Source of the DNA: Acidimicrobiales bacterium
Lineage (GTDB): Bacteria > Actinomycetota > Acidimicrobiia > Acidimicrobiales > RAAP-2
Direction of reading: 5' to 3'
Assembly: GCA_036796435.1 (NCBI GenBank)
Contig: DAIRCY010000006.1
Location: 3,604-50,700, forward strand
Length of the DNA: 47,097 nucleotides
Below are positions 1,816-46,508 of this stretch, one piece after another. Numbering within the stretch: position 1 is the first letter of the stretch; each line of letters begins with the position of its first letter. The position numbers and the translations under genes were made by a program. A model generated the notes under the pieces. That model searched no databases. It had not been told where the DNA came from and was given only the letters and a program-made list of their open reading frames with translations.

Positions 1816-2589
1816 TCAGCCGTCGATGGTGCGCATGGTGGCGGCGATCTCTTCCGCAGCTGCTTTCACCAGCCCCACGGTGTCGTCGAGGCGAGCGGCG
1901 TCGAGGCGATACTGGGGCGTCACGACGGAGAGCCCGGCGATCACGTGATCACGGCGTCCGAAGATCGGCGCGGCAATGCCGACTACCCCCTGGTCGCGCT
2001 CGCCGTAGGTGACTACGTATCCGTTCCGACGGATCTCGCCCAGGCAGGCTCGCAGTGCCCGCGGATCGGTGATCGTGTTGTCGGTGAATCGCTCGAGTGG
2101 TTCGGATCCGACCACGCGCTCGAGCTCGTCTTCATCGAGCCACGCCAAGGTCACGCGCGCAGAGGCGCCAGCGTGGACGGGTAGGACATGGCCTCGTTCG
2201 TAGGAGAGGCGAAGATTGCGCGAGCTCTCCTCGCGTTCCAGGCAGACCACCCGGTTCCCCGAGCGCCGCGTCAGCAGGACGGTCTCGCCGGTCGCGTCGA
2301 CCAGTCGCCGCATGACCGGTGCGGCCACCTCTGAGAGGCCCAGGCCTTGTCGGGCGATGCGGGCGAGCTGCAAGATGCGCGGACCGAGCCGGAACCCCGC
2401 GGGATCCTCCTCGAGGAGCCCGGCATCGCGCAGGCTCTGGAGGTAGCGGTACGTGGTGCTGCGCGACATCCCGAGCTTGCCCGCCACCTCGGACGCGGAT
2501 AGGACGGGCCGACCCCCGTCGTACAGGAGCAGCAGCTGGATCGTCCGGTCCGCCGTCACATTGCGCTGCGCCCTCGTGGGTGCGCTCAT
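1816..2589 (-). CDS. IclR-family transcriptional regulator
   Basis: ORF 1816..2670. wHTH segment LSASEVAGKLGMSRSTTYRYLQSLRDAGLL, followed by an IclR effector domain (...GVVGIAAPIF...). I prefer the internal ATG at 2589 (MSAPTRAQ...), which is preceded by AGGAGG. Confidence 0.9.
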   Translation of the reverse strand: MSAPTRAQRNVTADRTIQLLLLYDGGRPVLSASEVAGKLGMSRSTTYRYLQSLRDAGLLEEDPAGFRLGPRILQLARIARQGLGLSEVAAPVMRRLVDATGETVLLTRRSGNRVVCLEREESSRNLRLSYERGHVLPVHAGASARVTLAWLDEDELERVVGSEPLERFTDNTITDPRALRACLGEIRRNGYVVTYGERDQGVVGIAAPIFGRRDHVIAGLSVVTPQYRLDAARLDDTVGLVKAAAEEIAATMRTIDG

Positions 2590-2679
2590 CGGACGCCTCC
2601 TGGTCGGCTTCTTGTCACGATCGGCCGCTCGAGGGCCGTGCTCGTGCCGGCACGGGGGCCCCGCTGTCAACTCGCGAGA

Positions 2680-2699
2680 CCGTACTTCTCATAATACGG
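2680..2699. promoter_or_regulatory. Inverted repeat CCGTA-N10-TACGG around an AT-rich core (cttctcataa); possible IclR operator or -10 region
   Basis: Seen in the divergent region between the IclR gene and the GrdB-like gene. The minus strand reads TATTAT and the plus strand reads CATAAT inside the spacer. Confidence 0.3.
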
Positions 2700-2890
2700 G
2701 AATCATGGACCGGGCTCAGGACCTGCGTGCCACCGGTGAGGAGGGTGAGGGAGGGTCACCGCAACGTCCGGACTGCCGACCCGTTCGAGGAAGCCCGGCC
2801 CCAGCTCCACGAATCGGCAACCCGATCTGCGTCACGCGAACCCCACTCTCGGCGATGGCTCCCTCCCGCGTTGGGGCCGACCGCAGCCCC

Positions 2891-2919
2891 TTGACGCTTC
2901 ACTTCAGATCCCCTAATAT
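2891..2919 (+). promoter_or_regulatory. Near-consensus sigma70/sigA-type promoter: TTGACG, 17 nt spacer, TAATAT
   Basis: TTGACG at 2891-2896 and TAATAT at 2914-2919 with an exact 17-nt spacer. It lies about 125 nt upstream of the ATG at 3047. Confidence 0.45.
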
Positions 2920-3046
2920 GAGACGCAGTACCCGCATTTCGAGACAGTCCTGCTGGGCTGCGCTGTGAGCACACCACGTGAGCCAACTTCTCTTTTGACG
3001 TCGGCTCGGATCCCGCGATTGTGCTCGCTTGAAAGGACTTCACTGG

Positions 3047-3961
3047 ATGGTGTTTCGGTACACGGAGTGGATGCGGAGTTTGGCGGGCGAGGACCGGTAC
3101 CCGGGTTTACCGAATTTCGATCCTCCTGAGAGGGTCGTAACTCTGCGTAAACCCCTAAGAGAGTGCACCGTAGCTATCCTGACTAGTGCTGGCGTGCAGC
3201 CAACGACAGATGCGACCCAGTTCACGTCCCAGTTCGCCTACGATCCTCCGCAACACTTTGACCATTCGTACCGCTATATCCCTCGAGAGACCCCCCTCTC
3301 CGAGCTTGTCGTCAAACATACGTCCCCATCACGCGTCTGGGCCGAGCAGGACCTGAACGTCGTTTACCCCCGAGATCCGTTGGTGGAACTCGAAAGGCAA
3401 GGCGTTATCGGCAGGTTGGCTAAACGAGCAGTCTCATTTCTAGGAAATTCTTTTCAATTTAGCGACATGATAAGTCAAATTGTACCGAGCATCGTCCCGG
3501 GACTTCAGGAAGACGAAGTTGACCTCGCGTTGCTCATCCCCCTCTGACCAACCTGCCATCGGTCCGTGGGACTGATCGCGAGAGCAATAGAAGCTAGGGG
3601 GATCCCAACCGTCATGATGCACACGTTGCTCGAGATGGCTGAGGCCTTCAAGCCTCCGCGTCCCGTCTTCCTGGACTTTCCAATCGGGTGCTCAGCGGGT
3701 CGCCCTAATGACCTGGATTCCCAAGTAAGTGTGCTGCGAGCAGCGCTCGAATTCGCTCCGAAACTTGGAGTGCCTTGGAACGTCGGAAAGTTGCCATTCC
3801 AATGGTCAGCAGACGGAAGCCGGGACTGGGAGGAGCAGGTGCGCAAGCTATACATAGCTTCTGGCAGACCCGACCAGTTTCGGGATAAGAGCCCTGAGAG
3901 ATGGAGCGAAGGTAGCCTGCAGGGTAAAGAGCGGGAGTTTACGATTCGTTGTGCCTGCTAA
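3047..3961 (+). CDS. GrdB/PrdB-family (glycine/sarcosine/betaine/D-proline reductase protein B-like) protein with one in-frame TGA at 3545-3547. Candidate selenoprotein; alternatively a Cys-to-stop pseudogene.
   Basis: Track ORFs 3029..3547 and 3566..3961 are in the same frame, separated only by the TGA. The joined reading is ...VDLALLIPL-U-PTCHRSVGLIARAIEARGIPTVMMHT...PPRPVFLDFPIGCSAGRP.... That gives a U-x-x-C redox motif followed by the G.IAR.IE..GIPTV segment I associate with this family. The ATG at 3047 is preceded by GAAAGGA; TTG at 3029 is an alternative start. Confidence 0.7.
3554..3580 (+). promoter_or_regulatory. SECIS-like stem-loop immediately downstream of the in-frame UGA
   Basis: An 8-bp stem, 3558-3565 (AUCGGUCC) paired with 3569-3576 (GGACUGAU), including one G-U pair. 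The apical loop is GUG (3566-3568). A 3-bp lower extension (3554-3556 with 3578-3580) follows a 1x1 mismatch. The loop begins 18 nt after the UGA. Confidence 0.45.
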
Positions 3962-4249
3962 TGCGGTTTACACATCGACAGCTAGTATGCCGGGCCAGTC
4001 GACTCCGCCGCGGTTGGCTCTGGGACATCGGCGTCGCCAATACTCCCCGGGCTTCTTCAGTGATCTTCGTACGGGGCTTGTGGGTCCCAAGTAGCGAGTG
4101 ATCCGAGCTGTGGGACATAGGGTCCATCGGACCTGTGCAGGGGGGATCTCGGGCTCGCTTGGGCGCCGTGCGGCATGAGCGTGGATGTCAAGGTCGATCC
4201 CGGCTGTGCTCTCTTCCCCGCCTGCGTCTAGCGAGGGGAGGCGCGGACC

Positions 4250-5062
4250 GTGACCGAGCGGACTGGTCCTCTCCGGGAGCGCCGCTGGCGGGACCGAGCC
4301 TTTCGGTTGGGGAAGGGCCTCGTCGGCGTGGCGGGTGCCATTGGGATCTGGGAGCTGCTCGTGGTGAGCGGCGTCCTTCCCGAGAAGGCCGCACCGTCAT
4401 TTGGCTCGATCGTGGTGGCCGCGGTCACGGACCTGGGCAATGGCTCGCTCCTCGGGGCGGTCGGCGTCACGATGCTGGCCTGGGCCATCGGCCTCGCCAT
4501 CGCGACCGTGCTCGGCGTGATCCTGGGGGCGCTCATCGGCGTGTCGCAGTGGGTGGCGGGGGTCCTTCGCCTACTCGTGCGGTTCCTCCGTCCGGTGCCG
4601 TCGGTCGCGCTCATCCCGGTCGCCGTCTTGGTCGCGGGCCTCTCACTGAAGATGACGCTCATCCTGGTGGTCTTTGCCAGCGTGTGGCCGATCCTCTTCA
4701 ACACTGCCTACGGCATCCGAGAGGTCCCGCAGCTCTACAAGGACACCGGGAGAGCGATGGGCCTGTCCTCCGGCGGAGTGCTCACCCGGATCACCCTGCC
4801 CGCCGCGCTGCCGTCGGTCGCGACGGGCCTACGCGTCTCGGCTGCGATCGCCTTGGTGGTAGTCATCGCTGCCGAGCTCATCACCGGAAATGCCGGGATC
4901 GGGCGGTTCATACTCCAAGAGAGGCTCGGCGCGCAGTACTCCGACGCCTATGCCGCCGTGCTCGTCGGCGGACTGCTCGGCTATCTCATCAACGGCATCG
5001 CCACCGGCGCCGAGCGGCGCCTGTTGTTCTGGAGCGCCGAGTACCGGCAGGCGGCAGCGTGA
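4250..5062 (+). CDS. ABC transporter permease, NitT/TauT (SsuC/TauC-like) family
   Basis: ORF 4250..5062. Multi-TM protein with an EAA-type loop FNTAYGIREVPQLYKDTGRAMG. The GTG start is preceded by GAGGGGAGG. Confidence 0.9.
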   Translation: MTERTGPLRERRWRDRAFRLGKGLVGVAGAIGIWELLVVSGVLPEKAAPSFGSIVVAAVTDLGNGSLLGAVGVTMLAWAIGLAIATVLGVILGALIGVSQWVAGVLRLLVRFLRPVPSVALIPVAVLVAGLSLKMTLILVVFASVWPILFNTAYGIREVPQLYKDTGRAMGLSSGGVLTRITLPAALPSVATGLRVSAAIALVVVIAAELITGNAGIGRFILQERLGAQYSDAYAAVLVGGLLGYLINGIATGAERRLLFWSAEYRQAAA

Positions 5063-5958
5063 AGCCCCTCGATGGCCAGGCGAGCGGACGGACGGCCGAG
5101 GCGCCGGTATCGCGGCCGGGGGTTGCAGCCGGTGCAGCGCCCGCGCCGCGCGGACAGGCGCGCGGCGGACTCCCGAAGCGCCGGCTCTCGACGAGGCTCG
5201 GCCTTCGGTTGGTCGGCTGGCTCTCTTTCGCTGCGGCAGTAGGGCTCTGGCAGGCATGGGCATCAGCAGCGCACGTGCAGTCCGTCGCGACCTTCTCGAG
5301 CGCAATGAGAGCGCTCGGGACGGTGCTGACGGGCTCCGAGCTCCGCACGGACGTGCTCCCGTCCATCTACCAGGTGCTGATCGGCTTCGCGATCGCTTCC
5401 ATCGCCGGCGTTGTCCTCGGCCTCGTCATCGGGACGTTTCGCTTCCTCGATCCCTGGGTGCGCCCAGTCATCGAATTCATGCGCGCCGTCCCACCGCCGC
5501 TCATCATCCCGGTCGCCACGCTGATCATCGGCATCTCGGGGAACCTCGTGGTGGCCGTCATCGTGTTCGGCGCACTGTGGCCCGTGCTGCTCAACACGAC
5601 CGATGGGGCCCGACGCGTGGAGCCTGTCTACCTCGACACGGCGAAGGCGCTCCATATCCCGCCCTGGAAGGTCCTCGGCTCGATCATCCTCCCGGCCAGC
5701 TCCCCGATGATCATGGCTGGGCTCCGGGTCGCCCTGAGCACGTCCCTCATCATGATGGTCCTCGCCGAGATGCTGGCCTCGAGCAGTGGCATCGGTTACC
5801 TCATCCTCACTTCGCAGCAGACGTTCACAATTCCCGTCACCTACGGCGGTGTCGTGCTTCTGGGAATCATCGGGTGGCTCTTCGATGGGGTCTTCCTTTT
5901 GGTCGAGCATCGCGCGCTGCGCTGGAACAGCGACTATGCAGGGGGAACCGGTGTTTGA
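5059..5958 (+). CDS. Second ABC transporter permease, NitT/TauT family (paralog of the previous gene)
   Basis: This is the C-terminal 299 codons of ORF 4135..5958. Loop LLNTTDGARRVEPVYLDTAKALH. GTG at 5059 overlaps the upstream stop (GTGA). The exact start is uncertain because the N-terminus is long and low-complexity. Confidence 0.8.
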   Translation: MKPLDGQASGRTAEAPVSRPGVAAGAAPAPRGQARGGLPKRRLSTRLGLRLVGWLSFAAAVGLWQAWASAAHVQSVATFSSAMRALGTVLTGSELRTDVLPSIYQVLIGFAIASIAGVVLGLVIGTFRFLDPWVRPVIEFMRAVPPPLIIPVATLIIGISGNLVVAVIVFGALWPVLLNTTDGARRVEPVYLDTAKALHIPPWKVLGSIILPASSPMIMAGLRVALSTSLIMMVLAEMLASSSGIGYLILTSQQTFTIPVTYGGVVLLGIIGWLFDGVFLLVEHRALRWNSDYAGGTGV

Positions 5959-6754
5959 CGGAGCCACGCTCGAGTGCGACAAGGTCCAGAAGACCTTCTT
6001 GCTGAAGGACCGGACCCCGCGGCGGGTTATCGACGATCTGACCTTGCGCGTCGAAGCCGGCGAGTTCGCCGTCATCCTGGGACCGTCGGGGTGCGGGAAG
6101 ACCACGCTGTTGCGCATATTCAGCGGGCTCCTCCGTCCGGACGCGGGCGCCGTTTACGTACGTGGTGAGGAGGTCCGCAGCGTCCCGCGGGACGTCGCGG
6201 TCGTATTCCAGGAGTACAACAAGAGCCTCTTTCCGTGGCTGACGCTCGACCGGAACGTCCGCTTCGCGCTTCAGGGACTGCCGAAGGAGGTGGCGAAGGA
6301 GCGCGCGCGGAAGGCGCTCGCGCAGGTCGGACTGGCCGAGTCGGCGCATCAGTACCCCTGGCAGGTGTCCGGAGGGATGCAGCAGCGGACGGCCATCGCC
6401 AGGGCGCTCGCCTGCGAGGCCAAGCTCGTCATAATGGACGAGCCATTCGCATCGGTCGACGCGCTGACCCGGATCCAGCTCGAGCAGATGATGCTCGACA
6501 TCTGGAGCAGGGTCGGGTTCTCCGTCGTCTTCGTGACGCACGACATCGAGGAGGCGGTCTTCCTGGCCGACCGCATCTTCGTCCTCTCGGGTCGCCCGAC
6601 CTCTGTCAAGGAGGAGATCGTCGTGGACTTGCCGCGTCCGAGGGACCCGCTGGCCACCAAGGCGCTCCCGAAATTCCAGGAGCTGCGGGAAGAGGTGTTC
6701 AAGCTCATCGACAAAAGTCAGATGGAGGATAACCAGGACAGGCTGCTTGGGTGA
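5936..6754 (+). CDS. ABC transporter ATP-binding protein (NitT/TauT type)
   Basis: Internal ATG of ORF 5786..6754. Walker A GPSGCGKTT, signature VSGGMQQR, Walker B LVIMDEPF. Confidence 0.92.
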   Translation: MQGEPVFDGATLECDKVQKTFLLKDRTPRRVIDDLTLRVEAGEFAVILGPSGCGKTTLLRIFSGLLRPDAGAVYVRGEEVRSVPRDVAVVFQEYNKSLFPWLTLDRNVRFALQGLPKEVAKERARKALAQVGLAESAHQYPWQVSGGMQQRTAIARALACEAKLVIMDEPFASVDALTRIQLEQMMLDIWSRVGFSVVFVTHDIEEAVFLADRIFVLSGRPTSVKEEIVVDLPRPRDPLATKALPKFQELREEVFKLIDKSQMEDNQDRLLG

Positions 6755-6845
6755 GAAGGCTCGTGATCGAGACAGAAGACGTTGACCGATTGTCCGGCGT
6801 TGTACACCGGTACGGCTCCAAACGAGGAGAGGAGAAGGTGAACCT

Positions 6846-7847
6846 GTGATGAGGCACTACCGCTTGAGAATGGGACTCGTGGGATTGGCGGTGAGCGGAC
6901 TATCCCTCGCCACCGTAGGGAGCAGCCCGGCGTGGGCGTCGACCAAGAGCGCGAAGTCGACGGCGCGCACGACGACCAAGATAACGGTCGGGATTCTCCC
7001 GGTCGCAGATGCCGGCGGCTACTACACCGCCGTCAAGAGAGGGTTCTTCAAGAAGCGTCATCTCGACGTGGTTTCCGCCACAATCGCCGGTGGAGCCGCC
7101 CTTGTACCTGCGCTCGAGTCGGGTGCGATGCAGGTCGGCTTCTCCAACCTCGTGTCCGTCCTGGAATCAGGCGAGCACAACTTCGGAATGGAGTGCCTCG
7201 CCGGCACGTTGAAGAAGCCGCCAGTCGGACACAACTTGTCGATCGTCGTCTCCCCGAAGGACGCGTCGACAATCAAGAGCGCCAAGCAGCTCGACGGCAA
7301 AACGATTGCCGTCAACACCTTGGGCAATGTGCTCCAGCTTCTCGCCGAGAACTGGATCGCAACTCACGGAGGCACATACAAGTCGGTGCACTTCGTCGCC
7401 ATGACATTCCCGGACATGCCGGCTGCGATAGCCAAGGGAACCGTCGACGCCGCGGTCGTCGACGAGCCTTTCACCACAATCTCGATCCATGGTGGCGCGA
7501 AGATCCTTTCGGCCCGGCCATATCAGGTCATCACAAAGGAGCCCGTCTTCAGCTGCTGGCTCGCCAGCAAGAAGTGGGTGAACGCGCACAAGGCCGCGGC
7601 ACGTGCCTTTGTGGCAGCACTCAAGCAGTCCGACCGCTACATCGGCAAGCACCCAAATTACCTGCGGACCATCCTGCCTACATTCACCAAGATTCCGGCC
7701 GCATTGGCGAAGACCCTCACATTGCCGATCATCTCCACCCAGATCACAACGAAGATCTTGAAGAAGTGGGAGAGGGTTGCGCTGCATTTCGGAATGTTGA
7801 CGAAGAGGGTCAACGTGAACTCCCTTATCGCGCACCTCGGAAAGTGA
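6846..7847 (+). CDS. ABC transporter substrate-binding protein, NMT1/THI5 (SsuA/TauA-like) fold, secreted
   Basis: ORF 6846..7847. Signal peptide ...LVGLAVSGLSLATVGSSPAWAS. GGAGAGGAGAAGG lies upstream. Start is GTG 6846 or ATG 6849. G+C is visibly lower than in the neighbours. Confidence 0.8.
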   Translation: MMRHYRLRMGLVGLAVSGLSLATVGSSPAWASTKSAKSTARTTTKITVGILPVADAGGYYTAVKRGFFKKRHLDVVSATIAGGAALVPALESGAMQVGFSNLVSVLESGEHNFGMECLAGTLKKPPVGHNLSIVVSPKDASTIKSAKQLDGKTIAVNTLGNVLQLLAENWIATHGGTYKSVHFVAMTFPDMPAAIAKGTVDAAVVDEPFTTISIHGGAKILSARPYQVITKEPVFSCWLASKKWVNAHKAAARAFVAALKQSDRYIGKHPNYLRTILPTFTKIPAALAKTLTLPIISTQITTKILKKWERVALHFGMLTKRVNVNSLIAHLGK

Positions 7848-7852
7848 GCACG

Positions 7853-8863
7853 ATGAAAGTCATCGATTTCCACATCCACTACGCGCCGGAGGACATGGTC
7901 CGTCCCAATCTCGGTGAAGGCGGCAGTCCGAAGGTGTCGTGGAAGGACGGGGTCCCGCGCTACACGCAGCACGAGGGCCTCTATCGCATCGACCGGCACC
8001 TCGAGTGCATGGACGCTGCGGGCATCGACGTCGGCGTCCTGTCGAGTGGTGCTGCAATGGGAGCCGACCACGACTCGTGCGCGCACGTTAACGAGGACCT
8101 CGCCAGGGTGGAGAAGGAGAATCCCGGGCGCTTCCGCCCCCTATGCCACATCGACCCGCGTGACGACCGGTGGCGACGGGAATTGCAGATGTGCGCCGAG
8201 GAACACGGCTTCCCGGGGATCGCCTTCCCGAGCAGCTTCGGCACGGTGCAGCTGGACGACCCCGTGGTCTTCCCCGTGTACGAGGAGGCGGTGCGCCGAG
8301 GAATGTTCGTCTTCGTACACCCGTCCCTCCCGTGCCCGCCCGGGCTCGAGAGCTACTACGACCGCTACGACCTCTATCGATGCGTGGGTCGCGAGCACGA
8401 GCTCGTGCTCGCGACGTTCCGGCTCGTCGCGGGCAGGATCTTCGATCGCGTGCCCGGGCTGCAGGTCGTGATGTCGCACCTGGGAGGCGGGATCGCGGCA
8501 TTCATCGAGCGGATCCGCGGATACCAGGACAAGGGCCACCTCGGGATCACGGCCGACTCGCCGCACGGCCAGGTAGCGGACAATGCGTTCGACCACTACT
8601 TCGACCACAACATGTTCTTCGACACGGGTGGGGTGTTCGGGAGTATCAACGCAATCCGCGCCGCGCTCACCGAGATCCGGCCCGAGCGCATCGTCTTCGG
8701 CACTGACTACCCTCAGGAGATCCGGGACGCCGAAAAGATGGCGAAGTTCACCCGGGACCTTCGCGCCTCGGGCCTGTCCGGCGACGTCATCGAAGGCATT
8801 CTCGGTGGCAACGGCGCGCATCTGATCTCCGAGGACGCCGCGACGAGGAGCGCGTCGGCGTGA
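7853..8863 (+). CDS. Amidohydrolase_2 family metal-dependent hydrolase/decarboxylase (ACMSD/LigW-like)
   Basis: Internal ATG of ORF 6932..8863. MKVIDFHIHYAPE (HxH motif) ... VFVHP ... IVFGTDYP. Confidence 0.8.
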   Translation: MKVIDFHIHYAPEDMVRPNLGEGGSPKVSWKDGVPRYTQHEGLYRIDRHLECMDAAGIDVGVLSSGAAMGADHDSCAHVNEDLARVEKENPGRFRPLCHIDPRDDRWRRELQMCAEEHGFPGIAFPSSFGTVQLDDPVVFPVYEEAVRRGMFVFVHPSLPCPPGLESYYDRYDLYRCVGREHELVLATFRLVAGRIFDRVPGLQVVMSHLGGGIAAFIERIRGYQDKGHLGITADSPHGQVADNAFDHYFDHNMFFDTGGVFGSINAIRAALTEIRPERIVFGTDYPQEIRDAEKMAKFTRDLRASGLSGDVIEGILGGNGAHLISEDAATRSASA

Positions 8864-38010: not shown

Positions 38011-39015
38011 TCAGCCTCCGGCGAACGCAGGCACCACGTGTTCGCCGTAGGCGGCGAGCGTCGCGTCCTGCGAGTCGTGCATGAGGTAGATCGCGAAATG
38101 CGAGACGCCGAGCGACTCGAGCTCGCGCAGCTTCGCGACGTGGTCCGCCACCGTCCCGAGGACGCAGAACCGGTCCACGATCTCGTCGGGGACGAACTCG
38201 GTGTCGGGGTTGCCCGCACGGCCGTGGTGGGCGTAGTCGTAGCCGGTCCGGCGCTCGATGTACGAGGTGAGCGCGGCGGGGACCGCCCCGGACTCCTGGC
38301 CGTAGCGCGCGACGAGGTCGGCGACGTGGTTGCCGACCATGCCGCCGAACCAGCGGACCTGCTCGCGCTGGTGGGAGAGGTCGTCTGAGACGTAGGCGGG
38401 GGCCGCCGCACAGACCGTGAGCTCGTCGGGATCGCGTCCCGCCGCCTCGGCCGCCGCGCGGGCGCGCCCGATCGCCCACTCGACCACGAAGGGGTCGGCG
38501 ATCTGGAGGATGAGCCCGTCGGCCTCCCGTCCGGCGACCTCGAGCGCCTTCGGGCCGTACGCGGCCATCCACACTGGGAGCGCCCCGTCGTGCACCCAGG
38601 GGATCCGGACGGTCGTGCCGTGGAGCTCGACCTCCCTGCCCTCCGCCAGCGCCTTCAGCGTGCGGATGCAGGTCGCGAGCTCTTCGAGCGTCGTCGGCCG
38701 CTCGCCGATGACCCGGACGGCGGAGTCCCCGCGCCCGATGCCGCAGATCGTCCTGTTGCCGAACATGTCGTTCAGCGTGGCGAAGAGGGACGCGGTGACC
38801 GGCCACTCCCTCGAGCGGGGGTTCGTCACCATCGGCCCGACCGAGACGCGCCCGGTCGCTTCGAGGATTCGCGAGTAGATGACGAAGGGCTCCTGCCACA
38901 GAACCGGGGAGTCGAAGGTCCACACGGAGGAGAACCCCGCCGCCTCGGCGCGCCGCGCGAGCTCGATGAGCCGCGTCGCCGGCGGATCGGCCTGCAGCAC
39001 CATGCCGAAGTTCAT
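38011..39015 (-). CDS. LLM-class (F420- or FMN-dependent) oxidoreductase
   Basis: ORF 38011..39015. MNFGMVLQADPP...AEAAGFSSVWTFDS.... The ATG overlaps the dihydropyrimidinase stop (ATGA). Confidence 0.85.
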   Translation of the reverse strand: MNFGMVLQADPPATRLIELARRAEAAGFSSVWTFDSPVLWQEPFVIYSRILEATGRVSVGPMVTNPRSREWPVTASLFATLNDMFGNRTICGIGRGDSAVRVIGERPTTLEELATCIRTLKALAEGREVELHGTTVRIPWVHDGALPVWMAAYGPKALEVAGREADGLILQIADPFVVEWAIGRARAAAEAAGRDPDELTVCAAAPAYVSDDLSHQREQVRWFGGMVGNHVADLVARYGQESGAVPAALTSYIERRTGYDYAHHGRAGNPDTEFVPDEIVDRFCVLGTVADHVAKLRELESLGVSHFAIYLMHDSQDATLAAYGEHVVPAFAGG

Positions 39016-40448
39016 CGTCCAAGGCCCTCGTAGCGCCGGGGCGGCACGTCGATGCCGCTGTAGCGCGAACGCATGACGAACCGTCCGTGCCCTTCGCGCC
39101 CGGTGAAGCGGCCACCGTCTATGACAACCTCACCGCGTGAGACGACGGTGTCGACGCACCCCGTCACCGCCGTGCCCTCGTACGCCGAGTAGTCGACCGC
39201 CATGTGGTGGTGCTCGGCTGACAACGTGTGCGTCCGTGCGGGGTCGTAGACGACGATGTCGGCGTCGGCGCCCGGGAGCAACGATCCCTTCTTCGGGTAG
39301 AGCCCGAACAGGCGTGCAGGCGCCGTCGACGTCAGCTCCACCCAGCGGGCGAGCGAGATCCTTCCGCTCACCACCCCCTGGTACACGAGGTCCATCCGGT
39401 GCTCGACGCCCGGCAGACCGTTCGGGATCTTCGAGAAGTCGCCCCGGCCGAGCTCCTTCTGGTCCTTCATGCAGAAGGGGCAGTGGTCCGTCGAGACGAC
39501 CGAGAGGTCGTCGGTGCCGAGCCCCCGCCAGAGCGCCTCGTGGTGCGCCCGGGCGCGGATCGGGGGAGAGCAGACGTACTTCGCACCCTCGAGGTCCGGG
39601 CCGGCCATGAGCGACTCGTCGAGGAACAGGTACTGCGGGCACGTCTCCGCGTACACGGCGCGACCCTCGTCGCGTGCCGAGGCCACCTCGGCGAGCGCCT
39701 CCATCGCCGACAGGTGGACGACGTAGAGGGGACAGCCGGCGACGTCTGCGAGCACGATCGCCCGGTGGGTCGCCTCGCCTTCGAGGACCGACGGTCGGGT
39801 CTCGCCGTGCATGCGCGGCTCACCCTTGCCAGCTGCGAGCGCCTGCGCGACGAGCACGTCGATCGCGATCCCGTTCTCCGCGTGCATCATCACGACCGCG
39901 CCGGTGTCGGCCGCGGCCTGCATCGCCTGGAGGATCTTGCCGTCGTCGGAATAGAACACGCCCGGGTAGGCCATGAACAGCTTGAAGCTCGTCACGCCGT
40001 CGTCGACCAGGCCGTGCATCTCCTTCAGCACGGCGTCGTTCACGTCCGACAGGATCATGTGGAAACCGAAGTCGATCGCGCAGTGACCCTCCGCGCGGCT
40101 CATCCAGGTGTCGAGCCCTTCGCGGGCCGACCCCCCGCGCGGCTGGATGGCGAAGTCGACGATGGTCGTCGTCCCGCCGTGCGCGGCGGCGCGCGTGCCG
40201 GTGAAGAAGGTGTCCGCAGAGAAGGTGCCCCCGAAGGGCATCTCCATGTGCGTGTGCACGTCGATCCCGCCGGGCACGACGAGCTTGCCGGCGGCGTCGA
40301 TGTGCCGCGCGTCGACGGAGCCGGAGACGGAGCCCGAGCCCCCCGGGGCGAGCAGCGCCGCGACCTGCTCGCCTTCCACGAGCACGTCGGCGCGGACGGC
40401 GCCCGACGCGGTCACGACCGTCCCGCCCTCGACGAGGAGCCGGCTCAT
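39012..40448 (-). CDS. Dihydropyrimidinase / D-hydantoinase
   Basis: Internal ATG of ORF 39012..40799. GGIDVHTHMEMPFGGTFSADTFFTGTRAAAHGGTTTIVDF, and FKLFMAY (carbamylated-Lys context). The ATG overlaps the upstream stop (ATGA). Confidence 0.92.
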   Translation of the reverse strand: MSRLLVEGGTVVTASGAVRADVLVEGEQVAALLAPGGSGSVSGSVDARHIDAAGKLVVPGGIDVHTHMEMPFGGTFSADTFFTGTRAAAHGGTTTIVDFAIQPRGGSAREGLDTWMSRAEGHCAIDFGFHMILSDVNDAVLKEMHGLVDDGVTSFKLFMAYPGVFYSDDGKILQAMQAAADTGAVVMMHAENGIAIDVLVAQALAAGKGEPRMHGETRPSVLEGEATHRAIVLADVAGCPLYVVHLSAMEALAEVASARDEGRAVYAETCPQYLFLDESLMAGPDLEGAKYVCSPPIRARAHHEALWRGLGTDDLSVVSTDHCPFCMKDQKELGRGDFSKIPNGLPGVEHRMDLVYQGVVSGRISLARWVELTSTAPARLFGLYPKKGSLLPGADADIVVYDPARTHTLSAEHHHMAVDYSAYEGTAVTGCVDTVVSRGEVVIDGGRFTGREGHGRFVMRSRYSGIDVPPRRYEGLGR

Positions 40449-41284
40449 GGCGCCACCAGGGGTCCGTAGGCTTCCGGGCGCCGGTCGCGGTAGAAGGCCC
40501 AGAGTTGTCGCACCTCCTCCAGCATCGCCATGTCGAGGTCGCGCACGATGACCTCGTCCTCGGAGTCCGAGGCCGCCTCTCCCACGATCCGGCCGCGTGG
40601 GTCGCAGAAGTACGAACCGCCGTAGAAGTCGTCGTCGCCGAGCGGTTCCACGCCCACCCGGTTGATGGCACCCACGAAGTACTCGTTCGCCACGGCGGCG
40701 GCCGGCTGCTCCAGGTTCCACAGGTACGCGGAGAGGCCGCGGCTCGTCGCCGAGGGGTTGAAGACGATGCGCGCCCCGGCGAGGCCGAGCGCCCGCCACC
40801 CCTCGGGGAAGTGGCGGTCGTAGCAGATGTAGACACCGATGCGCCCCACAGCGGTGTCGAAGACGGGAAAACCGAGGTTGCCGGGCCGGAAGTAGTACTT
40901 CTCGTAGAACCCCTTCACCTGGGGGATGTGGTGCTTTCGGTAGATGCCGAGTTGGGTCCCGTCGGCGTCGACCACGACCGCCGTGTTGTAGTAGACGCCA
41001 GGCTGCTCCTCTTCGTAGATCGGAGCGACGATCACCATCCCGGTCTCCCGGGCGAGCTCCTGCACCCGCTCGGTCGTCGGGCCGGGGATCGGTTCCGCGT
41101 ACGAGTAGTGCTCGGGCTCCTGGACCTGGCAGAAGTACGGGCCGTAGAAGAGCTCCTGGAAGCAGAGCACCTGCGCGCCCTGCGCGGCGGCCTCCTTGGC
41201 CAGCACGAAGTTCTGCTCGACCATCGTCTCCTTGTCGCCGGTCCAGCGCGTCTGGATGAGCCCCGCCGTCACGATCTCCGCCAT
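40445..41284 (-). CDS. Beta-ureidopropionase-type carbon-nitrogen hydrolase (nitrilase superfamily)
   Basis: ORF 40445..41284, preceded by GGAAAGGAGGAGG. E-K-C triad contexts CFQELF, YRKHHIP and VYICYDRHFPE. ...IVFNPSAT...LW..E...AAVAN..F..AINRVG... closely parallels eukaryote-type beta-ureidopropionase as I recall it. Confidence 0.85.
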   Translation of the reverse strand: MAEIVTAGLIQTRWTGDKETMVEQNFVLAKEAAAQGAQVLCFQELFYGPYFCQVQEPEHYSYAEPIPGPTTERVQELARETGMVIVAPIYEEEQPGVYYNTAVVVDADGTQLGIYRKHHIPQVKGFYEKYYFRPGNLGFPVFDTAVGRIGVYICYDRHFPEGWRALGLAGARIVFNPSATSRGLSAYLWNLEQPAAAVANEYFVGAINRVGVEPLGDDDFYGGSYFCDPRGRIVGEAASDSEDEVIVRDLDMAMLEEVRQLWAFYRDRRPEAYGPLVAP

Positions 41285-41407
41285 CGCCTCCTCCTTTCCT
41301 TTCGCTCGGTCATCTTCCGCTCAGTCCAGCACTCTCCGGCAACCGATGCCGGACAAGCGCCGCCGTCGTGCCCTCCGCCCGGAGGCGGCCCCGCGTCGTG
41401 CGGCGCG

Positions 41408-42385
41408 TCAGAAGGTGAGCGGGTGCTTCGCCATCATCGTCACGATGTCGTAGACGACGGTCGCCGCGGCGAGCGCCGTGATCTCGGCGTGGTCGTAGGC
41501 CGGCGCGACCTCGACCACGTCGCCGCCCACGAGCGGGATGCCCTCGAGGCCGCGCAACAGGTGCAGCAGCTCCCGGCTCGTCACGCCACCCATCTCGGGC
41601 GTCCCGGTGCCGGGCGCGAACGCGGGGTCGAGCACGTCGATGTCCACCGACAAGTACACGGGTGCGTCGCCGACCCGGCGCCGGACACGTGCGACGGTCT
41701 CTTCCAGCCCGATGCGGTCCAGGTCGCCGGCTCGCACGATCTGGAAGCCGAAGCGCGCGTCGTCCCGCAGGTCCAGCTCGTCGTAGATCGGTCCGCGGAT
41801 TCCCACGTGCACCGAGTGGTCCGCGAGCAGCAGCCCCTCCTCGAAGGCGCGACGGAAGACGGTCCCGTGCGTGAGCGGCGAGCCGAAGTAGGTGTCCCAG
41901 GTGTCCAGGTGGGCGTCGAAGTGAACGAGGGCGACCGGCCCGTGGAGCTCGTTGACCGCCCGCAGGAGGGGCAGCGCGACGGTGTGGTCGCCTCCCATGG
42001 TGACGAGCCGCGACCGGTTGGCCAGCAGCGCTCGGGCGTGGTCGCGGATCTGGTCGATCGCGACTGTGAGCTGGAACGGGTTGACCGGGACGTCGCCCGC
42101 GTCGACGACCTGGACCTTCTCGAGTGGTGCGAGACCGAGCTCGGGATGGAAGGCGGGGCGGATGTTGCGCGAGGCGGTCCGCACCGCGATCGGCCCGAAC
42201 CTCGCGCCCGGACGGAACGAGGTGCCGTTGTCGAAGGGCGCGCCGAGCACAGCGATGTCGTAGCGGTGGACCTGGTCGACCGCAGGCAGCCGGACGAAGG
42301 TCGCGGCGCCGGCGAAGCGCGGCACCGTGGTCCCCGGGACGGGAGCCACGATGGGGTCACGGTCTGCGTTCGTGCGCTCGGTCAT
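41408..42385 (-). CDS. Ureohydrolase of the agmatinase/arginase family
   Basis: ORF 41408..42385. Mn-binding motifs GGDHTV, HFDAHLD and SVDIDVLDP. Confidence 0.9.
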   Translation of the reverse strand: MTERTNADRDPIVAPVPGTTVPRFAGAATFVRLPAVDQVHRYDIAVLGAPFDNGTSFRPGARFGPIAVRTASRNIRPAFHPELGLAPLEKVQVVDAGDVPVNPFQLTVAIDQIRDHARALLANRSRLVTMGGDHTVALPLLRAVNELHGPVALVHFDAHLDTWDTYFGSPLTHGTVFRRAFEEGLLLADHSVHVGIRGPIYDELDLRDDARFGFQIVRAGDLDRIGLEETVARVRRRVGDAPVYLSVDIDVLDPAFAPGTGTPEMGGVTSRELLHLLRGLEGIPLVGGDVVEVAPAYDHAEITALAAATVVYDIVTMMAKHPLTF

Positions 42386-43255
42386 CTAGGCGCGACCTCC
42401 GTTCCCGTCGAAGGGGTGCGGGAAGGCCCTCGGCGCGGGTCCGACCTCCCGGGTGTGTGCGGCGATCTCGGCCATGGTGGCCACCCACAGTCCGTCCAGC
42501 GACTCCATCCGCTCGACGAGCCGCTCGAGGGCGGCGAGGCGCGACGGCCGGCCGCTCAGGAAGGGGTGGTTGGTGAGGACGAAGCAGCAGCCCTCACGGT
42601 AGAAGGCGTCGAGCTCGAGCGTCCACATCTCGAGCACCTTGGCCGGGCTCTCGATGAGCCCGCTCCCGGTGATCCCGGGCACGTAGGCGTACTGCTCCCA
42701 GTCGTCGAGCGCCCAGTGGACCGGGATCTCCACGATGTCGCGGGCCCCGGAGCCCGCGTGCTCGGCCAGGACGTAGGGGACCTCGCAGTCCATCATCGAG
42801 CTGTCGTAGAGGAAGCCGCGGTCGATGAGAAGGGACGGGGTGTGGAAGTTCAGCTCCCACAGGGGCGCCCTGTACCCCACGGGGCGCCCCGCTCCCGCCT
42901 TGTCGAGGGCCTCGAGACCCCGGTCGATCATGCGAGCCTCGTCGTCGCGCGTCATGCCGATCGTCGACTCGTGCAGGTAGCTGTGGTGCGCGATCTCGTG
43001 ACCGGCCCGTGCGATCTCGTCGACCACCGAGGGATACCTCTCCGCCGTGAACCCAGGGACGAAGAAGGTGGCATGCAGCCGATGCCGCTCGAGAAGCCTG
43101 AGGATGCGCGGCACGCCGGTGAGAGGCCCGTACGCCTGATGGGACATCACCGTGAGCCGAGCGGCCGACGACGGGTCGGCCGAGAGCAGCGCCGACTCGG
43201 CGTCGACGTCGAAGGTGAGCGCGGCCGCGGCGACCTTTCCTTCGGGCCACCGCAT
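42386..43255 (-). CDS. Polysaccharide-deacetylase-fold hydrolase (PuuE allantoinase-like)
   Basis: C-terminal part of ORF 42386..44701. LTFDVDAES, HATFFVPG, GHEIAHHSY. The start is ATG 43255, or TTG 43300 preceded by GGGAG. The stop abuts the next gene's start with a 0-nt gap. Confidence 0.8.
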   Translation of the reverse strand: MRWPEGKVAAAALTFDVDAESALLSADPSSAARLTVMSHQAYGPLTGVPRILRLLERHRLHATFFVPGFTAERYPSVVDEIARAGHEIAHHSYLHESTIGMTRDDEARMIDRGLEALDKAGAGRPVGYRAPLWELNFHTPSLLIDRGFLYDSSMMDCEVPYVLAEHAGSGARDIVEIPVHWALDDWEQYAYVPGITGSGLIESPAKVLEMWTLELDAFYREGCCFVLTNHPFLSGRPSRLAALERLVERMESLDGLWVATMAEIAAHTREVGPAPRAFPHPFDGNGGRA

Positions 43256-43350
43256 GGCGGCCGGACGCGCGGTCGCATCCTGCGTGCCGTGCGCGCTCAA
43301 CGACAGCTCCCGACAGCCATGCAGGGCGCCTCCCGCGCGCTGGCGGACGG

Positions 43351-44826
43351 TCAGCCCTCGCTCGGCATGCCGGCGGCGACGGTGGCGGCGCCGACCGGTT
43401 CCCCCGCCACGCGCCGCGTTTCCGCGGAACCGGCGCGCCGCAGACCCTTCCCGACGTCGCGCGCGGACCCGGTCTCGAGCAGCCGGATCACGAAGTAGAC
43501 GAGACCACCGACGACGAAGCCCACGTAGAAGGCGATGTCCCCGCCGTGCAGCCAGTTCGCCGACGCAGGGCCGACGAACAGTGTGGTGTCCATGAAGGGC
43601 ACGGCGGCGCCGAACCCGACGAGCTCTGCGACCAGCGCCTCCCAACCCGAGGGAAGGCTCTTGAAGTCCATCACGCTCGCCGGGTCGACCCGGCCGCGGG
43701 CGCGCCACCAGTGGACGATCTCGATGGCGGCGAACGGTGGGACCCAGTAGGTGACGAAGAGCAGCACTTCTTCGAACTTCGTGGTGAGGTTGCCGGTGTG
43801 CAGCCACAGGGTCAGGGCGAACGCGAGCGCGGTCACGACGACAGCCACGTACGGCCGCCTGACCCGGGCACCTGCGGCCTGGAGCGCGAGCGACCCCGAG
43901 TAGTCGTTCATCGCGTTCACCGAGACGGTGCCGATCCAGATGGCGATCATCGCCATCGCCCCGAGCGCGCCACCCCCCATCAGGTGGTCGATCCCGCCCG
44001 AGGTGCTCTGCGCGACCGCGGAAGCCGCGGCGAGGCCGAGGATCTCGACCCAGATCGACGAGAGGGAGACACCCGCCAGGCTGAGGAAGAAGATCCCCGC
44101 CTTCGACGCGTCCGACTTCATGTAGCGGCTGTAGTCCGAGGCGTAGGCGCCCCAGGAGATGACGAAGCTGGCCGAGAGGGTGACCATCAGGATGAAGCCG
44201 CCGGCGAGGTTGCCCCCGTGCGAGGTCGCGGCAGCGTGCCAGTTGCCGACTGAGGCCACCTTCACGGTCACCGCGACGAACATCGCCCCGAGGACCACCG
44301 ACATCCACTTCTGGAAGAGATGCATGACCTCGTAGCCGAAGAGGCCGAGGACGCCCTGCATGACGAGCACGATCAGCAGGCCCACCCAGAAGGGCACGTG
44401 GATCAGGATGTTGATGGCCTCGGCGCCGAAGATGGCGTTGATCGCGTCCCACGCGATGGTGGACAGCCACTGGAGGACGCCAGGCAGGGCGATCGACTTG
44501 CCGAACGAGAACCGCCCGACGGGGATCTGCCCGAGCCCCGTCTTCGGTCCCCAGGTCCCGAGCACCGCGACGAGGAGGCCGCCGATCAAGGTCCCGACGA
44601 CGATCGCCGTGACCCCGAGCGAGAATCCGACACCGACGAAGCTGGCCATGGCGAGCGTGCCGATGAAGAACCCCGCGGGAACCAGGTTCGGCGTGAACCA
44701 CACGGTGAAGACCCGGTGCAGCCGCCCGTACCGCTCGTCCTCGGGGATCGGCGCCATGCCGTGCATCTCCAAAGTGGCGTGACCCTCGTACTTCGGCCGG
44801 TTGCCCTCGTAGACCTCGCTCGACAT
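43351..44826 (-). CDS. NCS1-family (purine-cytosine / hydantoin / allantoin type) permease
   Basis: ORF 43351..44853. I prefer ATG 44826, preceded by GAGGGAGGGG. About 12 TM helices. N-terminus ...MAPIPEDERYGRLHRVFTVWFTPNL.... Confidence 0.88.
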   Translation of the reverse strand: MSSEVYEGNRPKYEGHATLEMHGMAPIPEDERYGRLHRVFTVWFTPNLVPAGFFIGTLAMASFVGVGFSLGVTAIVVGTLIGGLLVAVLGTWGPKTGLGQIPVGRFSFGKSIALPGVLQWLSTIAWDAINAIFGAEAINILIHVPFWVGLLIVLVMQGVLGLFGYEVMHLFQKWMSVVLGAMFVAVTVKVASVGNWHAAATSHGGNLAGGFILMVTLSASFVISWGAYASDYSRYMKSDASKAGIFFLSLAGVSLSSIWVEILGLAAASAVAQSTSGGIDHLMGGGALGAMAMIAIWIGTVSVNAMNDYSGSLALQAAGARVRRPYVAVVVTALAFALTLWLHTGNLTTKFEEVLLFVTYWVPPFAAIEIVHWWRARGRVDPASVMDFKSLPSGWEALVAELVGFGAAVPFMDTTLFVGPASANWLHGGDIAFYVGFVVGGLVYFVIRLLETGSARDVGKGLRRAGSAETRRVAGEPVGAATVAAGMPSEG

Positions 44827-44948
44827 GTGGCCCCTCCCTCTCTGGCGCCCCACGGTGCGCCGATCGCGCCCCGGTTCCCGGCTCGCGCCCGGCTCACCAG
44901 CCCCCGCTGCGGGACGCCGGGACGGATCATAGGCAGCGCGAGTCGAGC

Positions 44949-44976
44949 CCCGATGCTCTCCCGTGCGAGCATCGGG
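44949..44976. promoter_or_regulatory. Perfect 10-bp inverted repeat CCCGATGCTC-N8-GAGCATCGGG ending 2 nt before the ATG at 44979
   Basis: Read directly. It lies in the 152-bp divergent region between the NCS1 permease operon and the PLP-decarboxylase gene. Confidence 0.45.
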
Positions 44977-44978
44977 CG

Positions 44979-46508
44979 ATGGACGACGACGCCCCCGCCG
45001 CCAGCCGCTTCGGCTGGCACCCCGAGCCGGCCATGTTCGACCTCGCCGCAGGAGGGGCCCGGCCGGTGCTGGACGCGCTCGGGCACCAGGCGTGGACGCT
45101 CGCCCTCGACTACCTCTACGACGAGGCGCTCGTCCGCCCGGTCGGCCCCGACTCCTACCAGGAGCTGCGTGCCCGCTTCTTCGGCCCGGCGGGCGACCCC
45201 GCGCCCGCGCCCGAAGCGCCGTCGTCCTCGGCCCAGGTGCTCGACGAGGTCCGCTCGCGGGTGAGCCCGTACGCGTACAACGCGTACCACCCCCGCTCCT
45301 TCTCGTACTTCACGCCGCCGCCGGTGCCGATGTCGGTGGTGGGCGAGCTCCTCTGCCAGGTCCTCCACCAGGGGATCGACGTCTTCCACTCCGGGCCGGT
45401 CGGCGCCCTCGTCGAAGAGGAGGTCACCCGGTGGCTCGCGGACCTCGTCGGCGGCGGACCCGAGAGCTGGGGCGTCCTCACCTCGGGGGGCGTGATGGCC
45501 AACGTCATGGCGATGACGGTCGCGCGTGACCGGCACCTGTCCCACCTTCTCGGCACGGACGTCCCGCCGCGCGGCGGCGCCCTCGAGCGGGCGCGCGTCT
45601 ACGTCTCGGACCAGGCGCACTTCTCGATCGGCCGGGCTCTCGACATGCTCGGCTTCCCGCCGGACGCGCTCGCCGTCGTGGCGAGCGACGACCGGTACCG
45701 CCTGCAGGCCGCCCCGGTCGCCCACCTGATCGCCGAGGACAGGGCAGCCGGGCTGGTGCCGTTCTGCATCGCCGCCGTCTGCGGGTCGACCAACACCGGC
45801 TCGGTCGACGACGTGCCCGGCCTCGCCGAGCTCGCGGCCCGCGAGGGGCTCTGGCTGCACGTGGACGCCGCGTACGGTGGCGCTGCGCGCCTCTCCGCTC
45901 GGGACACGTCCCGGGTCCCGGGGCTCGAGCTCGCGGACTCGGTCACGGTCGATCCGCACAAGTGGCTCTTCCAGGCGTACGACATCGGGGGGCTCGTGGT
46001 GCGCCGCCGCGAGGACCTGCACCGCACCTTCGACCGGTCGCCGGAGTACTACCGGTCCGCGATCCCCGAGACCGCGCCGCTCAACTGGCTCGAGTACTCC
46101 ATGGAGGGGACGCGCCGCTTCCGGGCCCTCAAGCTGTGGACGTCGTGGAAGCACGTGGGGAGCGACGGGTTCGCCCGCCTCGTGGAGCACGACAACGATG
46201 TCGCCGCCTTCCTCGCCGACGAGATCCGCCGCGCCGACGACTTCGACGCCGCGGTCGAAACCCCGGACCTGTCGGTCGTGTGCTTCCGCCACGTTCCCCC
46301 GGACATGCCTGACGCGGCGCTCGACGCGCACCAGGACCGGCTCCAGCGGGCGCTCGAGGTCTCGGGGGAGGCGTGGGTGTCGACCACCAAGCTCCGCGGG
46401 CGCACCTACCTGCGCGCCGGTGTCATGAACTGGCTCACGACCGAAGACGACGTCCTCGCCCTGCTCGCCTCGCTGCGGCGCCTCGCACGCGGCCTCCCCG
46501 AGGAGTGA
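44979..46508 (+). CDS. Group II pyridoxal-phosphate-dependent amino-acid decarboxylase
   Basis: ORF 44979..46508. ...TSGGVMANV..., ...HVDAAYGG..., PLP-lysine motif VDPHKW. Confidence 0.88.
   Translation: MDDDAPAASRFGWHPEPAMFDLAAGGARPVLDALGHQAWTLALDYLYDEALVRPVGPDSYQELRARFFGPAGDPAPAPEAPSSSAQVLDEVRSRVSPYAYNAYHPRSFSYFTPPPVPMSVVGELLCQVLHQGIDVFHSGPVGALVEEEVTRWLADLVGGGPESWGVLTSGGVMANVMAMTVARDRHLSHLLGTDVPPRGGALERARVYVSDQAHFSIGRALDMLGFPPDALAVVASDDRYRLQAAPVAHLIAEDRAAGLVPFCIAAVCGSTNTGSVDDVPGLAELAAREGLWLHVDAAYGGAARLSARDTSRVPGLELADSVTVDPHKWLFQAYDIGGLVVRRREDLHRTFDRSPEYYRSAIPETAPLNWLEYSMEGTRRFRALKLWTSWKHVGSDGFARLVEHDNDVAAFLADEIRRADDFDAAVETPDLSVVCFRHVPPDMPDAALDAHQDRLQRALEVSGEAWVSTTKLRGRTYLRAGVMNWLTTEDDVLALLASLRRLARGLPEE

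Follow-up and report, generated by a model that had tools for sequence, protein, structure and literature searches.

Selenoproteins catalogued as proline reductase PrdB, with a U-x-x-C motif (U, selenocysteine, Sec) in a pfam07355 domain, have been known from environmental sequences since 2005, when 42 such genes were counted in the Sargasso Sea (PMC1088965). The GOS survey of 2008 gives 235 Sec and 110 Cys forms of the PrdB family (PMC2398784), which in both data sets ranked with the most abundant selenoprotein families, and PrdB selenoproteins are recorded from non-Stickland Deltaproteobacteria such as Anaeromyxobacter and Geobacter (PMC1794560). U-x-x-C is also the motif given for TIGR04483, the curated model of PrdB (PMC13188914). 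The DNA described here, a stretch of 47,097 nucleotides from a contig of an Acidimicrobiales bacterium (GenBank assembly GCA_036796435.1, contig DAIRCY010000006.1), which is referred to as the window, contains at positions 3047–3961 what is probably a functional, stand-alone PrdB/GrdB-like selenoprotein gene, in which the UGA at 3545–3547 would encode Sec.

The gene in the window resembles the environmental PrdB family in its pfam07355-type domain, its U-x-x-C motif and the coexistence of Sec and Cys forms, as well as in the absence of PrdA, the occurrence in non-Stickland organisms and routine truncation by gene callers. On the basis of motif, domain and distribution, it presumably belongs to that set. 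Unlike the environmental genes, the one in the window is found in a metagenome-assembled genome (MAG) of Acidimicrobiales and is compositionally foreign there; moreover, in the available sections of those reports neither a C-terminal extension of ~60 residues ending in C-x-C nor a selenocysteine insertion sequence (SECIS) encoding an SVGL peptide is described. The sequence-only reading of this locus, which put the gene forward as a selenoprotein candidate of a family with characterised selenoprotein members, was a real catch, but stand-alone PrdB selenoproteins with the UxxC motif have long been catalogued and are abundant (PMC1088965, PMC2398784, PMC1794560). The family itself has thus been known since 2005, and what is modestly new is the Acidimicrobiales host, the apparent transfer of a single gene to a place beside a conserved regulator, and the signature that the SECIS leaves in both peptide and RNA.

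Among curated models, the joined protein scores best with TIGR04483, which represents PrdB of Clostridium/Acetoanaerobium sticklandii and Clostridioides difficile. The match (E = 3e-38) covers residues 26–255 and profile positions 16–236 of 238, extending across the TGA, and the two proteins have in common the UxxC Sec motif and, presumably, a chemistry based on a selenol nucleophile and a resolving Cys. On the other hand, the score of 131.6 bits compares with an equivalog cut-off of 300, D-proline reductase PrdB comprises ~240 residues whereas the window protein has 304 and an extra C-terminal CxC tail, and the setting in the window is an aerobic-type actinobacterial catabolic context. With GrdB, GrdF and GrdH (PF07355, TIGR01918) the window protein shares the GRDB domain (35 bits against a Pfam cut-off of 22), and Sec occupies the corresponding position, immediately beyond the Pfam model; the family assignment made from the sequence is thereby confirmed. 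Only the C-terminal ~130 of the 347 Pfam positions are matched, however (residues 34–163, profile positions 220–344), the window protein lacks the first ~200 residues of GrdB, and the GrdB motif is UxxCxxC rather than UxxC. TIGR01918, which describes the full architecture of ~430 residues, is likewise matched only in its C-terminal half, with 45.8 bits versus 65.45. The window ORFs (open reading frames) that were scanned include, as anticipated, no GrdA, GrdC, GrdD or GrdE genes, nor do they include PrdC or other prd genes, and a PrdA domain is found neither in the ~43 ORFs scanned nor among the recurrent neighbours of the 162 family loci described below. Judged by these defining tests, the scores and the partners, the predicted protein is neither a D-proline nor a glycine reductase.

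The joined gene and its TGA column

The TGA at 3545–3547 separates ORFs 3029..3547 and 3566..3961, which are in the same frame, and read-through gives the junction ...DLALLIPL-[UGA]-PTCHRSVGLIARAIEARGIPTVMM..., exactly as described from the sequence. Taken together, the two ORFs are one gene for a PrdB/GrdB-like redox protein, with the ATG at 3047, which aligns with the starts of homologues (MPFSY.../MTFVY...), as its likely start. The geometry of two ORFs bridged by TGA is not in itself beyond chance, because both strands of the 70% G+C window hold 131 same-frame pairs of this kind with at least 60 codons in each ORF; the pair discussed here stands out because homology is present on both sides of the TGA. 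When the other bridged pairs were considered as further selenoprotein candidates, the 131 pairs returned were essentially noise at this G+C content.

A search of 5.8 billion proteins yielded 26 full-length homologues (291–304 residues, 100% query coverage, 40–60% identity), all with [FL]-C-P-x-C-H at the junction. Two other matches, P0027 and P0041, end exactly at the Sec column, and on their contigs an in-frame TGA is present at this point, after which the conserved frame continues. When 185,579 species-representative genomes and metagenomes of the Joint Genome Institute (JGI) were scanned, 162 analysable loci were obtained, in which the Sec column is TGA in 84 (the window included), TGC or TGT in 78, and nothing else, so that the column is Cys or TGA at every locus, as the sequence-only reading had proposed for a redox position. 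The 83 other TGA loci belong to Deltaproteobacteria, Binatia, Tectomicrobia, Acidobacteriota, Eremiobacterota, Gammaproteobacteria and Thermoanaerobaculia, or come from metagenomes.

The window protein is 51–55% identical to Sec-type proteins of Deltaproteobacteria, Binatia and related groups, versus 41–45% to the actinobacterial Cys clade, and in a rough neighbor-joining (NJ) tree it pairs with P0001 (contig L084; 64% identity) on a separate deep branch. Cys-type homologues from Amycolatopsis, Pseudonocardia, Catenulispora, Mycobacterium and Acidimicrobiales MAGs have the same architecture and C-terminal CxC, with CPxCH as their own motif, and some share with the window a divergent IclR gene and an Amidohydro_2 neighbour. 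They differ in having Cys for Sec, in lacking the hairpin that follows the UGA, in belonging to a different NJ clade, and in a G+C content that matches that of their hosts. The nearest relative, L084, is also a Cys form: its codon at the Sec column is TGT, and of the hairpin only the 3′ arm (GGACTGAT) is left, the 5′ arm being mutated (CGC TGC ACG). This remnant is apparently a vestige of an earlier Sec-to-Cys conversion. Conversions of this kind seem to have occurred several times in the family, whose original state was apparently Sec. Identity to the nearest relative is 68% downstream of the TGA and 59% upstream of it, with neither a frameshift nor a second stop, and since the downstream half is the better conserved one, the sequence 3′ of the TGA is not decaying.

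It is highly improbable that the locus comprises two separate genes, or that the UGA is read through by other means, such as a reassigned code or near-cognate suppression. Gene callers do split the locus, as had been expected, and the 166-residue N-terminal ORF has a protein record of its own, while no record of the full-length protein with X, or of variants of the C-terminal half, was found in the protein collection searched. All the same, the homologues are single polypeptides of 291–304 residues, which upholds the proposal of a single continuous gene. The downstream piece has no ribosome-binding site, as claimed, and its first start codon, GTG at 3566–3568, coincides precisely with the three-base hairpin loop; the accompanying statement that it has no ATG was wrong, because in-frame ATGs (MM, 3608–3613) are present, with no Shine-Dalgarno sequence 5′ of them. 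As for the genetic code, TGA is the ordinary stop in 29 of 33 Pfam-supported ORFs of the window, and for this reason codon reassignment does not lie behind the read-through.

Splitting is not limited to this locus. In a profile search of 1.84 billion protein representatives, which returned 3409 relatives at E<=1e-3, ~25 of the 150 top-ranking family members are incomplete and break off immediately before the Sec column, and on this basis the mis-annotation of Sec-type members is systematic. Database proteins of 137–182 residues that end at profile positions 153–155, before the Sec column, include P0213, P0222, P0288, P0310 and P0318–P0341, among others, whereas P0240 and P0317 begin after it.

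The hairpin that follows the UGA

The hairpin in the window has an 8-bp stem and a 3-nt GUG loop, starts 10 nt after the UGA, and has a predicted energy of −13.6 kcal/mol. The model of bacterial SECIS elements (bSECIS) specifies a loop of 3–9 nt, a stem of 4–16 bp, a G in the first two loop positions, a distance of 16–37 nt between the UGA and the loop, and a minimum free energy <=-7.5 kcal/mol (PMC13188914). The corresponding values here, 3 nt, 8 bp, GU at the start of the loop, 18 nt and −13.6 kcal/mol, are within each of these limits. As in the bSECISearch model and in the E. coli fdhF paradigm, the hairpin closely follows the UGA within the coding sequence and has a small loop that begins with G-U, but its sequence is unrelated to that of fdhF and no bulged U is evident.

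All TGA loci encode the peptide H-[R/Q]-S-V-G-L-[I/L/V] downstream of the UGA, in the form CAUC[G/A]GUCC-GUN-GGACUGAU. All eight stem pairs are formed in 74 of the 84 TGA loci and seven of eight in the other 10, whereas none of the 78 Cys loci can form all eight, most of them having 3–5. Of the cells of this comparison, 98.4% are paired; two pairs exhibit compensatory double changes (U-A to C-G and A-U to G-C), two further ones alternate between G-U and A-U or between U-A and U-G, and in slid controls the pairing falls to 2–52%. Codon usage, tabulated for the first 32 TGA loci, follows the same pattern. Codons in the stem are nearly fixed (Ser TCC in 31 of 32, Gly GGA in 29 and GGG, with a U-G pair, in 3, Leu CTG in 32 of 32, His CAT in 29 of 31), while the Val codon in the loop is free (GTG 17, GTC 12, GTT 3), and 2–6 synonyms occur at each of the flanking Pro, Cys, Ala and Arg positions. 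The Ala codon of the optional lower stem varies as well, being GCA, GCG, GCC or GCT. Because the SVGL peptide is not a conserved feature of Cys-type proteins, the constraint acts on the RNA and not on the protein. On this comparative evidence, the hairpin at 3558–3576 can be defined as the predicted SECIS conserved in the family and strictly linked to TGA.

A compensatory change in the stem, from U-A to C-G, is present in L100 and L164, two Sec-type metagenome contigs with ~70% G+C. It combines a synonymous replacement in the His codon (CAT to CAC) with the substitution of Ile by Val (ATC to GTT), the protein sequence accommodating the RNA structure. The host of these two contigs could be another high-G+C lineage.

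The linkage between TGA and hairpin bears directly on whether the gene is an ordinary pseudogene, in which a TGC or TGT codon of a Cys-type gene mutated to TGA. Such a change requires a single base, and Cys-type homologues are common in Actinomycetota. A nonsense mutation would not bring with it the SVGL hairpin, found in 84 of 84 TGA loci and in 0 of 78 Cys loci, and the greater similarity of the protein to Sec-type than to actinobacterial Cys-type members, as well as the better conservation of the half 3′ of the TGA, point the same way; a pseudogene of this origin is extremely improbable and effectively refuted. If the hairpin acts as SECIS elements do in the bacterial paradigm, it would recruit SelB-GTP-Sec-tRNASec to a ribosome paused at the UGA, and translation would continue to the TAA ending at 3961, yielding a protein of ~34 kDa.

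Foreign composition and possible Sec decoding in the host

The gene and its upstream intergenic region coincide with an islet of ~1.2 kb (2850–4050) that has 55–57% G+C and sharp edges within a contig of 68–70% G+C. With a G+C content of 0.55–0.57 and a value at third codon positions (GC3) of 0.61, versus 0.80–0.96 in 18 other genes, including those of the IclR regulator and the transporter, the selenoprotein gene is the sole compositional outlier, and its TAA stop is rare in the window. Among the 162 loci, the window is the only one with a difference of this size between gene and flanks. Since the gene alone is compositionally foreign, the simplest reading of these data would be a recent horizontal acquisition of a single gene by an Acidimicrobiales bacterium. 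When the surroundings of the islet were searched for the boundaries of a mobile element, nothing turned up beyond short repeats of the kind that chance would produce, and a search for terminators around the locus found none.

The high-G+C actinobacterial context proposed in the sequence-only reading, which overlooked the foreign composition of the gene, agrees with other parts of the window. The named best matches of its aminopeptidase N (PepN) all belong to Acidimicrobiales bacterium, with 51–72% identity, and its carbon-nitrogen hydrolase shares a 90% cluster with a protein from an Acidimicrobiales MAG. A gene for FhaA, a protein with an FHA domain encoded on the minus strand, adjoins tRNA-Leu(CAG) at 1364–1449, the two lying within positions 400–1449; FhaA beside tRNA-Leu is a typical arrangement on the chromosomes of Actinobacteria. 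From this tRNA gene the foreign gene is ~1.6 kb away, with the IclR gene between them.

Several observations weigh against a selenoprotein gene that functions in this host. The right junction of the islet (3795–4250) has no independent assembly support. The GC3 of the gene has not drifted toward the value of at least 0.80 that is characteristic of the host, and its intactness could reflect recent arrival rather than selection there. None of selA, selB, selD and the gene for tRNA-Sec (selC) is located within the 47-kb window, and every homologue retrieved from named Actinomycetota genomes is a Cys form. Single-sequence folding of the hairpin gives modest z-scores (−0.87 and −1.33), and because these are weak the case for the hairpin is comparative and not thermodynamic. 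No SECIS family from Rfam was detected, either in the whole window at gathering thresholds or in 3400–3700 at E<=10; bacterial SECIS elements are poorly represented in Rfam, and this null result is thus uninformative. Finally, the proposals for substrate and chemistry discussed below have no other basis than analogy and gene neighbourhoods, which are heterogeneous.

The unsupported right junction, the metagenomic origin of the 50.7-kb contig and the sharp edges of the islet would all be compatible with an artefact, either an error at the TGA in sequencing or assembly, or a chimeric insertion of a low-G+C gene, derived from the reads of another organism, into the MAG contig. Two Logan assemblies, from different runs, are nevertheless 100% identical to the window with the TGA included, SRR2093883 over positions 2239–3794 and SRR2093884 over 2792–3700, and the first of them (L082) spans the left junction, passing from the IclR gene with 70% G+C into the gene with 55% G+C. 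TGA is, furthermore, the apparent ancestral state of the family at this column. An artefact is consequently very unlikely, and the TGA, for which inspection of the reads had been suggested, is independently reproduced.

A more serious alternative, although one that we still regard as unlikely, is that a Sec-type gene with an intact SECIS moved recently into a host that lacks the Sec machinery. The UGA would then terminate translation after residue 166, leaving a gene that is non-functional or awaiting a conversion of TGA to TGY, as happened in its nearest relative. The absence of Sec machinery from the window and the Cys forms of all named actinobacterial homologues are in line with this alternative, as are the fate of L084/P0001, which changed to TGT and kept a single arm of the hairpin, and the foreign GC3, which precludes any deduction of purifying selection in the host. 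According to published surveys, selenoprotein genes are almost confined to genomes that have the Sec trait (PMC1794560), which argues against a stranded gene. Its ribosome-binding site, promoter-like site and divergent regulator, its place at the head of a native-looking transporter operon, and a frame with neither a frameshift nor a second stop do so as well. Some Acidimicrobiia also encode selABCD, namely the genus Actinomarina (bioRxiv 10.64898/2026.04.03.716425), and Sec machinery is reported from other Actinobacteria (PMC1794560, PMC5029168). Since the window holds no sel genes, Sec insertion in this host is something that we infer, as we do the chemistry, the substrate and the displacement scenario considered below; a functional gene in which the UGA specifies Sec is, in our judgement, the probable reading.

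Neighbourhood, active site and proposed function

The positions of the individual elements of the locus and of the adjacent genes are collected in Table 1. The order of genes in the window is IclR, the selenoprotein gene, two permeases, ATPase, NMT1-type binding protein, Amidohydro_2, a methyltransferase, and the subunits of an electron transfer flavoprotein (ETF).

Table 1. Elements of the predicted selenoprotein gene and of its immediate neighbourhood in the window.
Feature	Position	Strand	Basis and remarks
IclR-family regulator, divergent	1816..2670	-	Pfam IclR_C/HTH_IclR; native GC3 0.82; start codon uncertain
Sigma-70-like promoter match, TTGACG-17-TAATAT	2891..2919	+	IclR/prdB-like intergenic region; consensus match only, 1 found versus 0.3 expected
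Shine-Dalgarno-like AAAGGA	3032..3037	+	9 nt 5′ of ATG 3047; read from sequence
PrdB/GrdB-like predicted selenoprotein gene, complete	3047..3961	+	304 codons; ATG 3047, Sec167, Cys170, TAA 3959-3961; profiles, homologues, single domain in AF2 model, GC3
Lineage-specific 9-residue insertion QFAYDPPQH (residues 62-70)	3230..3256	+	Gap in all 35 aligned homologues; pLDDT ~55
In-frame UGA, predicted Sec codon (residue 167) of U-P-T-C motif	3545..3547	+	Column TGA or TGC/TGT in 162 loci; two assemblies
Cys170 codon UGC, putative resolving Cys of UxxC	3554..3556	+	Invariant Cys at +3; also 5′ side of lower stem
Upper hairpin of predicted SECIS	3558..3576	+	5′ arm 3558-3565 (AUCGGUCC), loop 3566-3568 (GUG), 3′ arm 3569-3576 (GGACUGAU); fold, conservation, bSECIS criteria
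Optional 3-bp lower stem, 3′ side GCG	3578..3580	+	Pairs with UGC 3554-3556; fold; weakly conserved
C-terminal C-x-C (CAC)	3950..3958	+	Alignment: invariant in all ~300-residue family members
NitT/TauT-type ABC transporter: two BPD_transp_1 permeases, ABC ATPase, NMT1/THI5-like binding protein	4250..7847	+	Pfam; native GC3 0.80-0.88
Amidohydro_2 (metal-dependent hydrolase/decarboxylase)	7862..8863	+	Pfam; start approximate; recurrent family neighbour

Some of these neighbours recur throughout the family, although the neighbourhoods as a whole are heterogeneous. Amidohydro_2 proteins of the same cluster are encoded next to family members in 21 loci (12 Sec and 9 Cys), and NMT1-type binding proteins flank Sec-type homologues in nine loci other than the window. 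A gene for glutathione S-transferase (GST) in the same orientation lies directly downstream in seven Sec loci (L024, L105, L111, L116, L119, L123 and L126), at ~+400 to +1490 from the Sec codon, and a second type of GST is found nearby in four deltaproteobacterial loci (L007, L008, L010 and L012). Genes for OCD/mu-crystallin proteins are located upstream in seven loci. In acidobacterial loci the neighbours are subunits of a molybdoenzyme of the xanthine dehydrogenase (XDH) type and Peptidase_M24, and in actinobacterial Cys loci they comprise FAA hydrolase, extradiol dioxygenase, a monooxygenase dependent on flavin adenine dinucleotide (FAD), GCV_T, and regulators of the GntR and IclR families.

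The IclR regulator of the window is 49% identical to those encoded divergently upstream of the Cys-type homologues of Amycolatopsis rhabdoformis and Pseudonocardia sulfidoxydans (L040 and L042). The enzymes themselves are only 41–42% identical and belong to different clades. As a suggestion only, the foreign gene may have taken the place of a native Cys-type orthologue that was subject to the same IclR regulator, a case of xenologous displacement.

In the AlphaFold2 (AF2) model, the protein forms a single domain with a mean predicted local distance difference test (pLDDT) score of 92.5 and a predicted template modelling (pTM) score of 0.92. The U167-x-x-C170 motif is placed between a β-strand comprising residues 160–164 and the N terminus of a helix comprising residues 169–183, which corresponds, in the model, to the classical geometry of a redox dyad. 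Only the window protein has the insertion QFAYDPPQH, which replaces the context of a conserved N-D-L motif. Neither a sequence search of the Protein Data Bank (PDB) nor Foldseek returned relatives (best TM score 0.29, E = 0.02), and the GRDB/PrdB fold appears to be structurally uncharacterised. The C-terminal C-x-C (RCAC/RCNC), present in all members of ~300 residues, is absent from relatives of PrdB size, with ~227 residues; it may be a second redox centre or a tail that shuttles electrons.

The chemistry of PrdB and GrdB, as summarised in PMC13188914, relies on a selenol nucleophile and a resolving Cys. By analogy, the selenol of Sec167 would be the nucleophile that attacks the bond between Cα and a heteroatom of the substrate, or an oxidised sulfur centre, Cys170 would resolve the adduct to a selenenylsulfide, and a thiol donor, for which the invariant C-terminal CxC and glutathione are candidates, would re-reduce it. 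Glutathione is possibly the reductant of the family enzyme. With low confidence, the neighbours point to the breakdown of a small N-containing or aromatic acid that is imported, and not to Stickland fermentation of proline.

Combining these lines, we can envisage a Sec-decoding member of the Acidimicrobiales that exchanged a native Cys-type gene for a foreign Sec-type allele, keeping both IclR and the transporter/amidohydrolase operon. The family of ~300 residues, with UxxC and the C-terminal CxC, would then consist of thiol- or glutathione-linked selenoenzymes acting in the aerobic breakdown of an N-heterocyclic or aromatic acid that is imported, by a chemistry distinct from the Stickland reduction of proline or glycine. 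Taken in its entirety, this scenario is possible but doubtful.

The segment 10024–22972 of the window encodes the β and α subunits of ETF, an FAD oxidoreductase, a short-chain dehydrogenase/reductase (SDR), a protein similar to HpcH/HpaI aldolase or citrate lyase, a family III CoA-transferase, an acyl-CoA dehydrogenase, a luciferase-like monooxygenase and a two-subunit CoA transferase, and looks like a cluster for the catabolism of organic acids or acyl-CoA. A module resembling those for polyamines or agmatine occupies 39012–46508 and includes an Amidohydro_1 protein, a carbon-nitrogen hydrolase similar to N-carbamoylputrescine amidase (40445–41284), a member of the arginase/agmatinase family (41408–42385), a permease of the cytosine/purine type (43351–44853) and a decarboxylase dependent on pyridoxal phosphate (PLP; 44979–46508).

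For annotation, the two ORFs are to be merged into one selenoprotein coding sequence with a translation exception at 3545–3547, and the H-[R/Q]-S-V-G-L-I peptide that overlaps the predicted SECIS provides a simple signature separating Sec-type from Cys-type members. For the family, the recurrent neighbours, Amidohydro_2, NMT1-type binding protein, GST and OCD/mu-crystallin, are testable leads to the function of a large group of proteins. As for the organism, the locus would be a clean example of a selenoprotein gene that moved singly into a high-G+C actinobacterial genome, where the transferred gene sits beside a regulator that controls Cys-type orthologues in other Actinobacteria.

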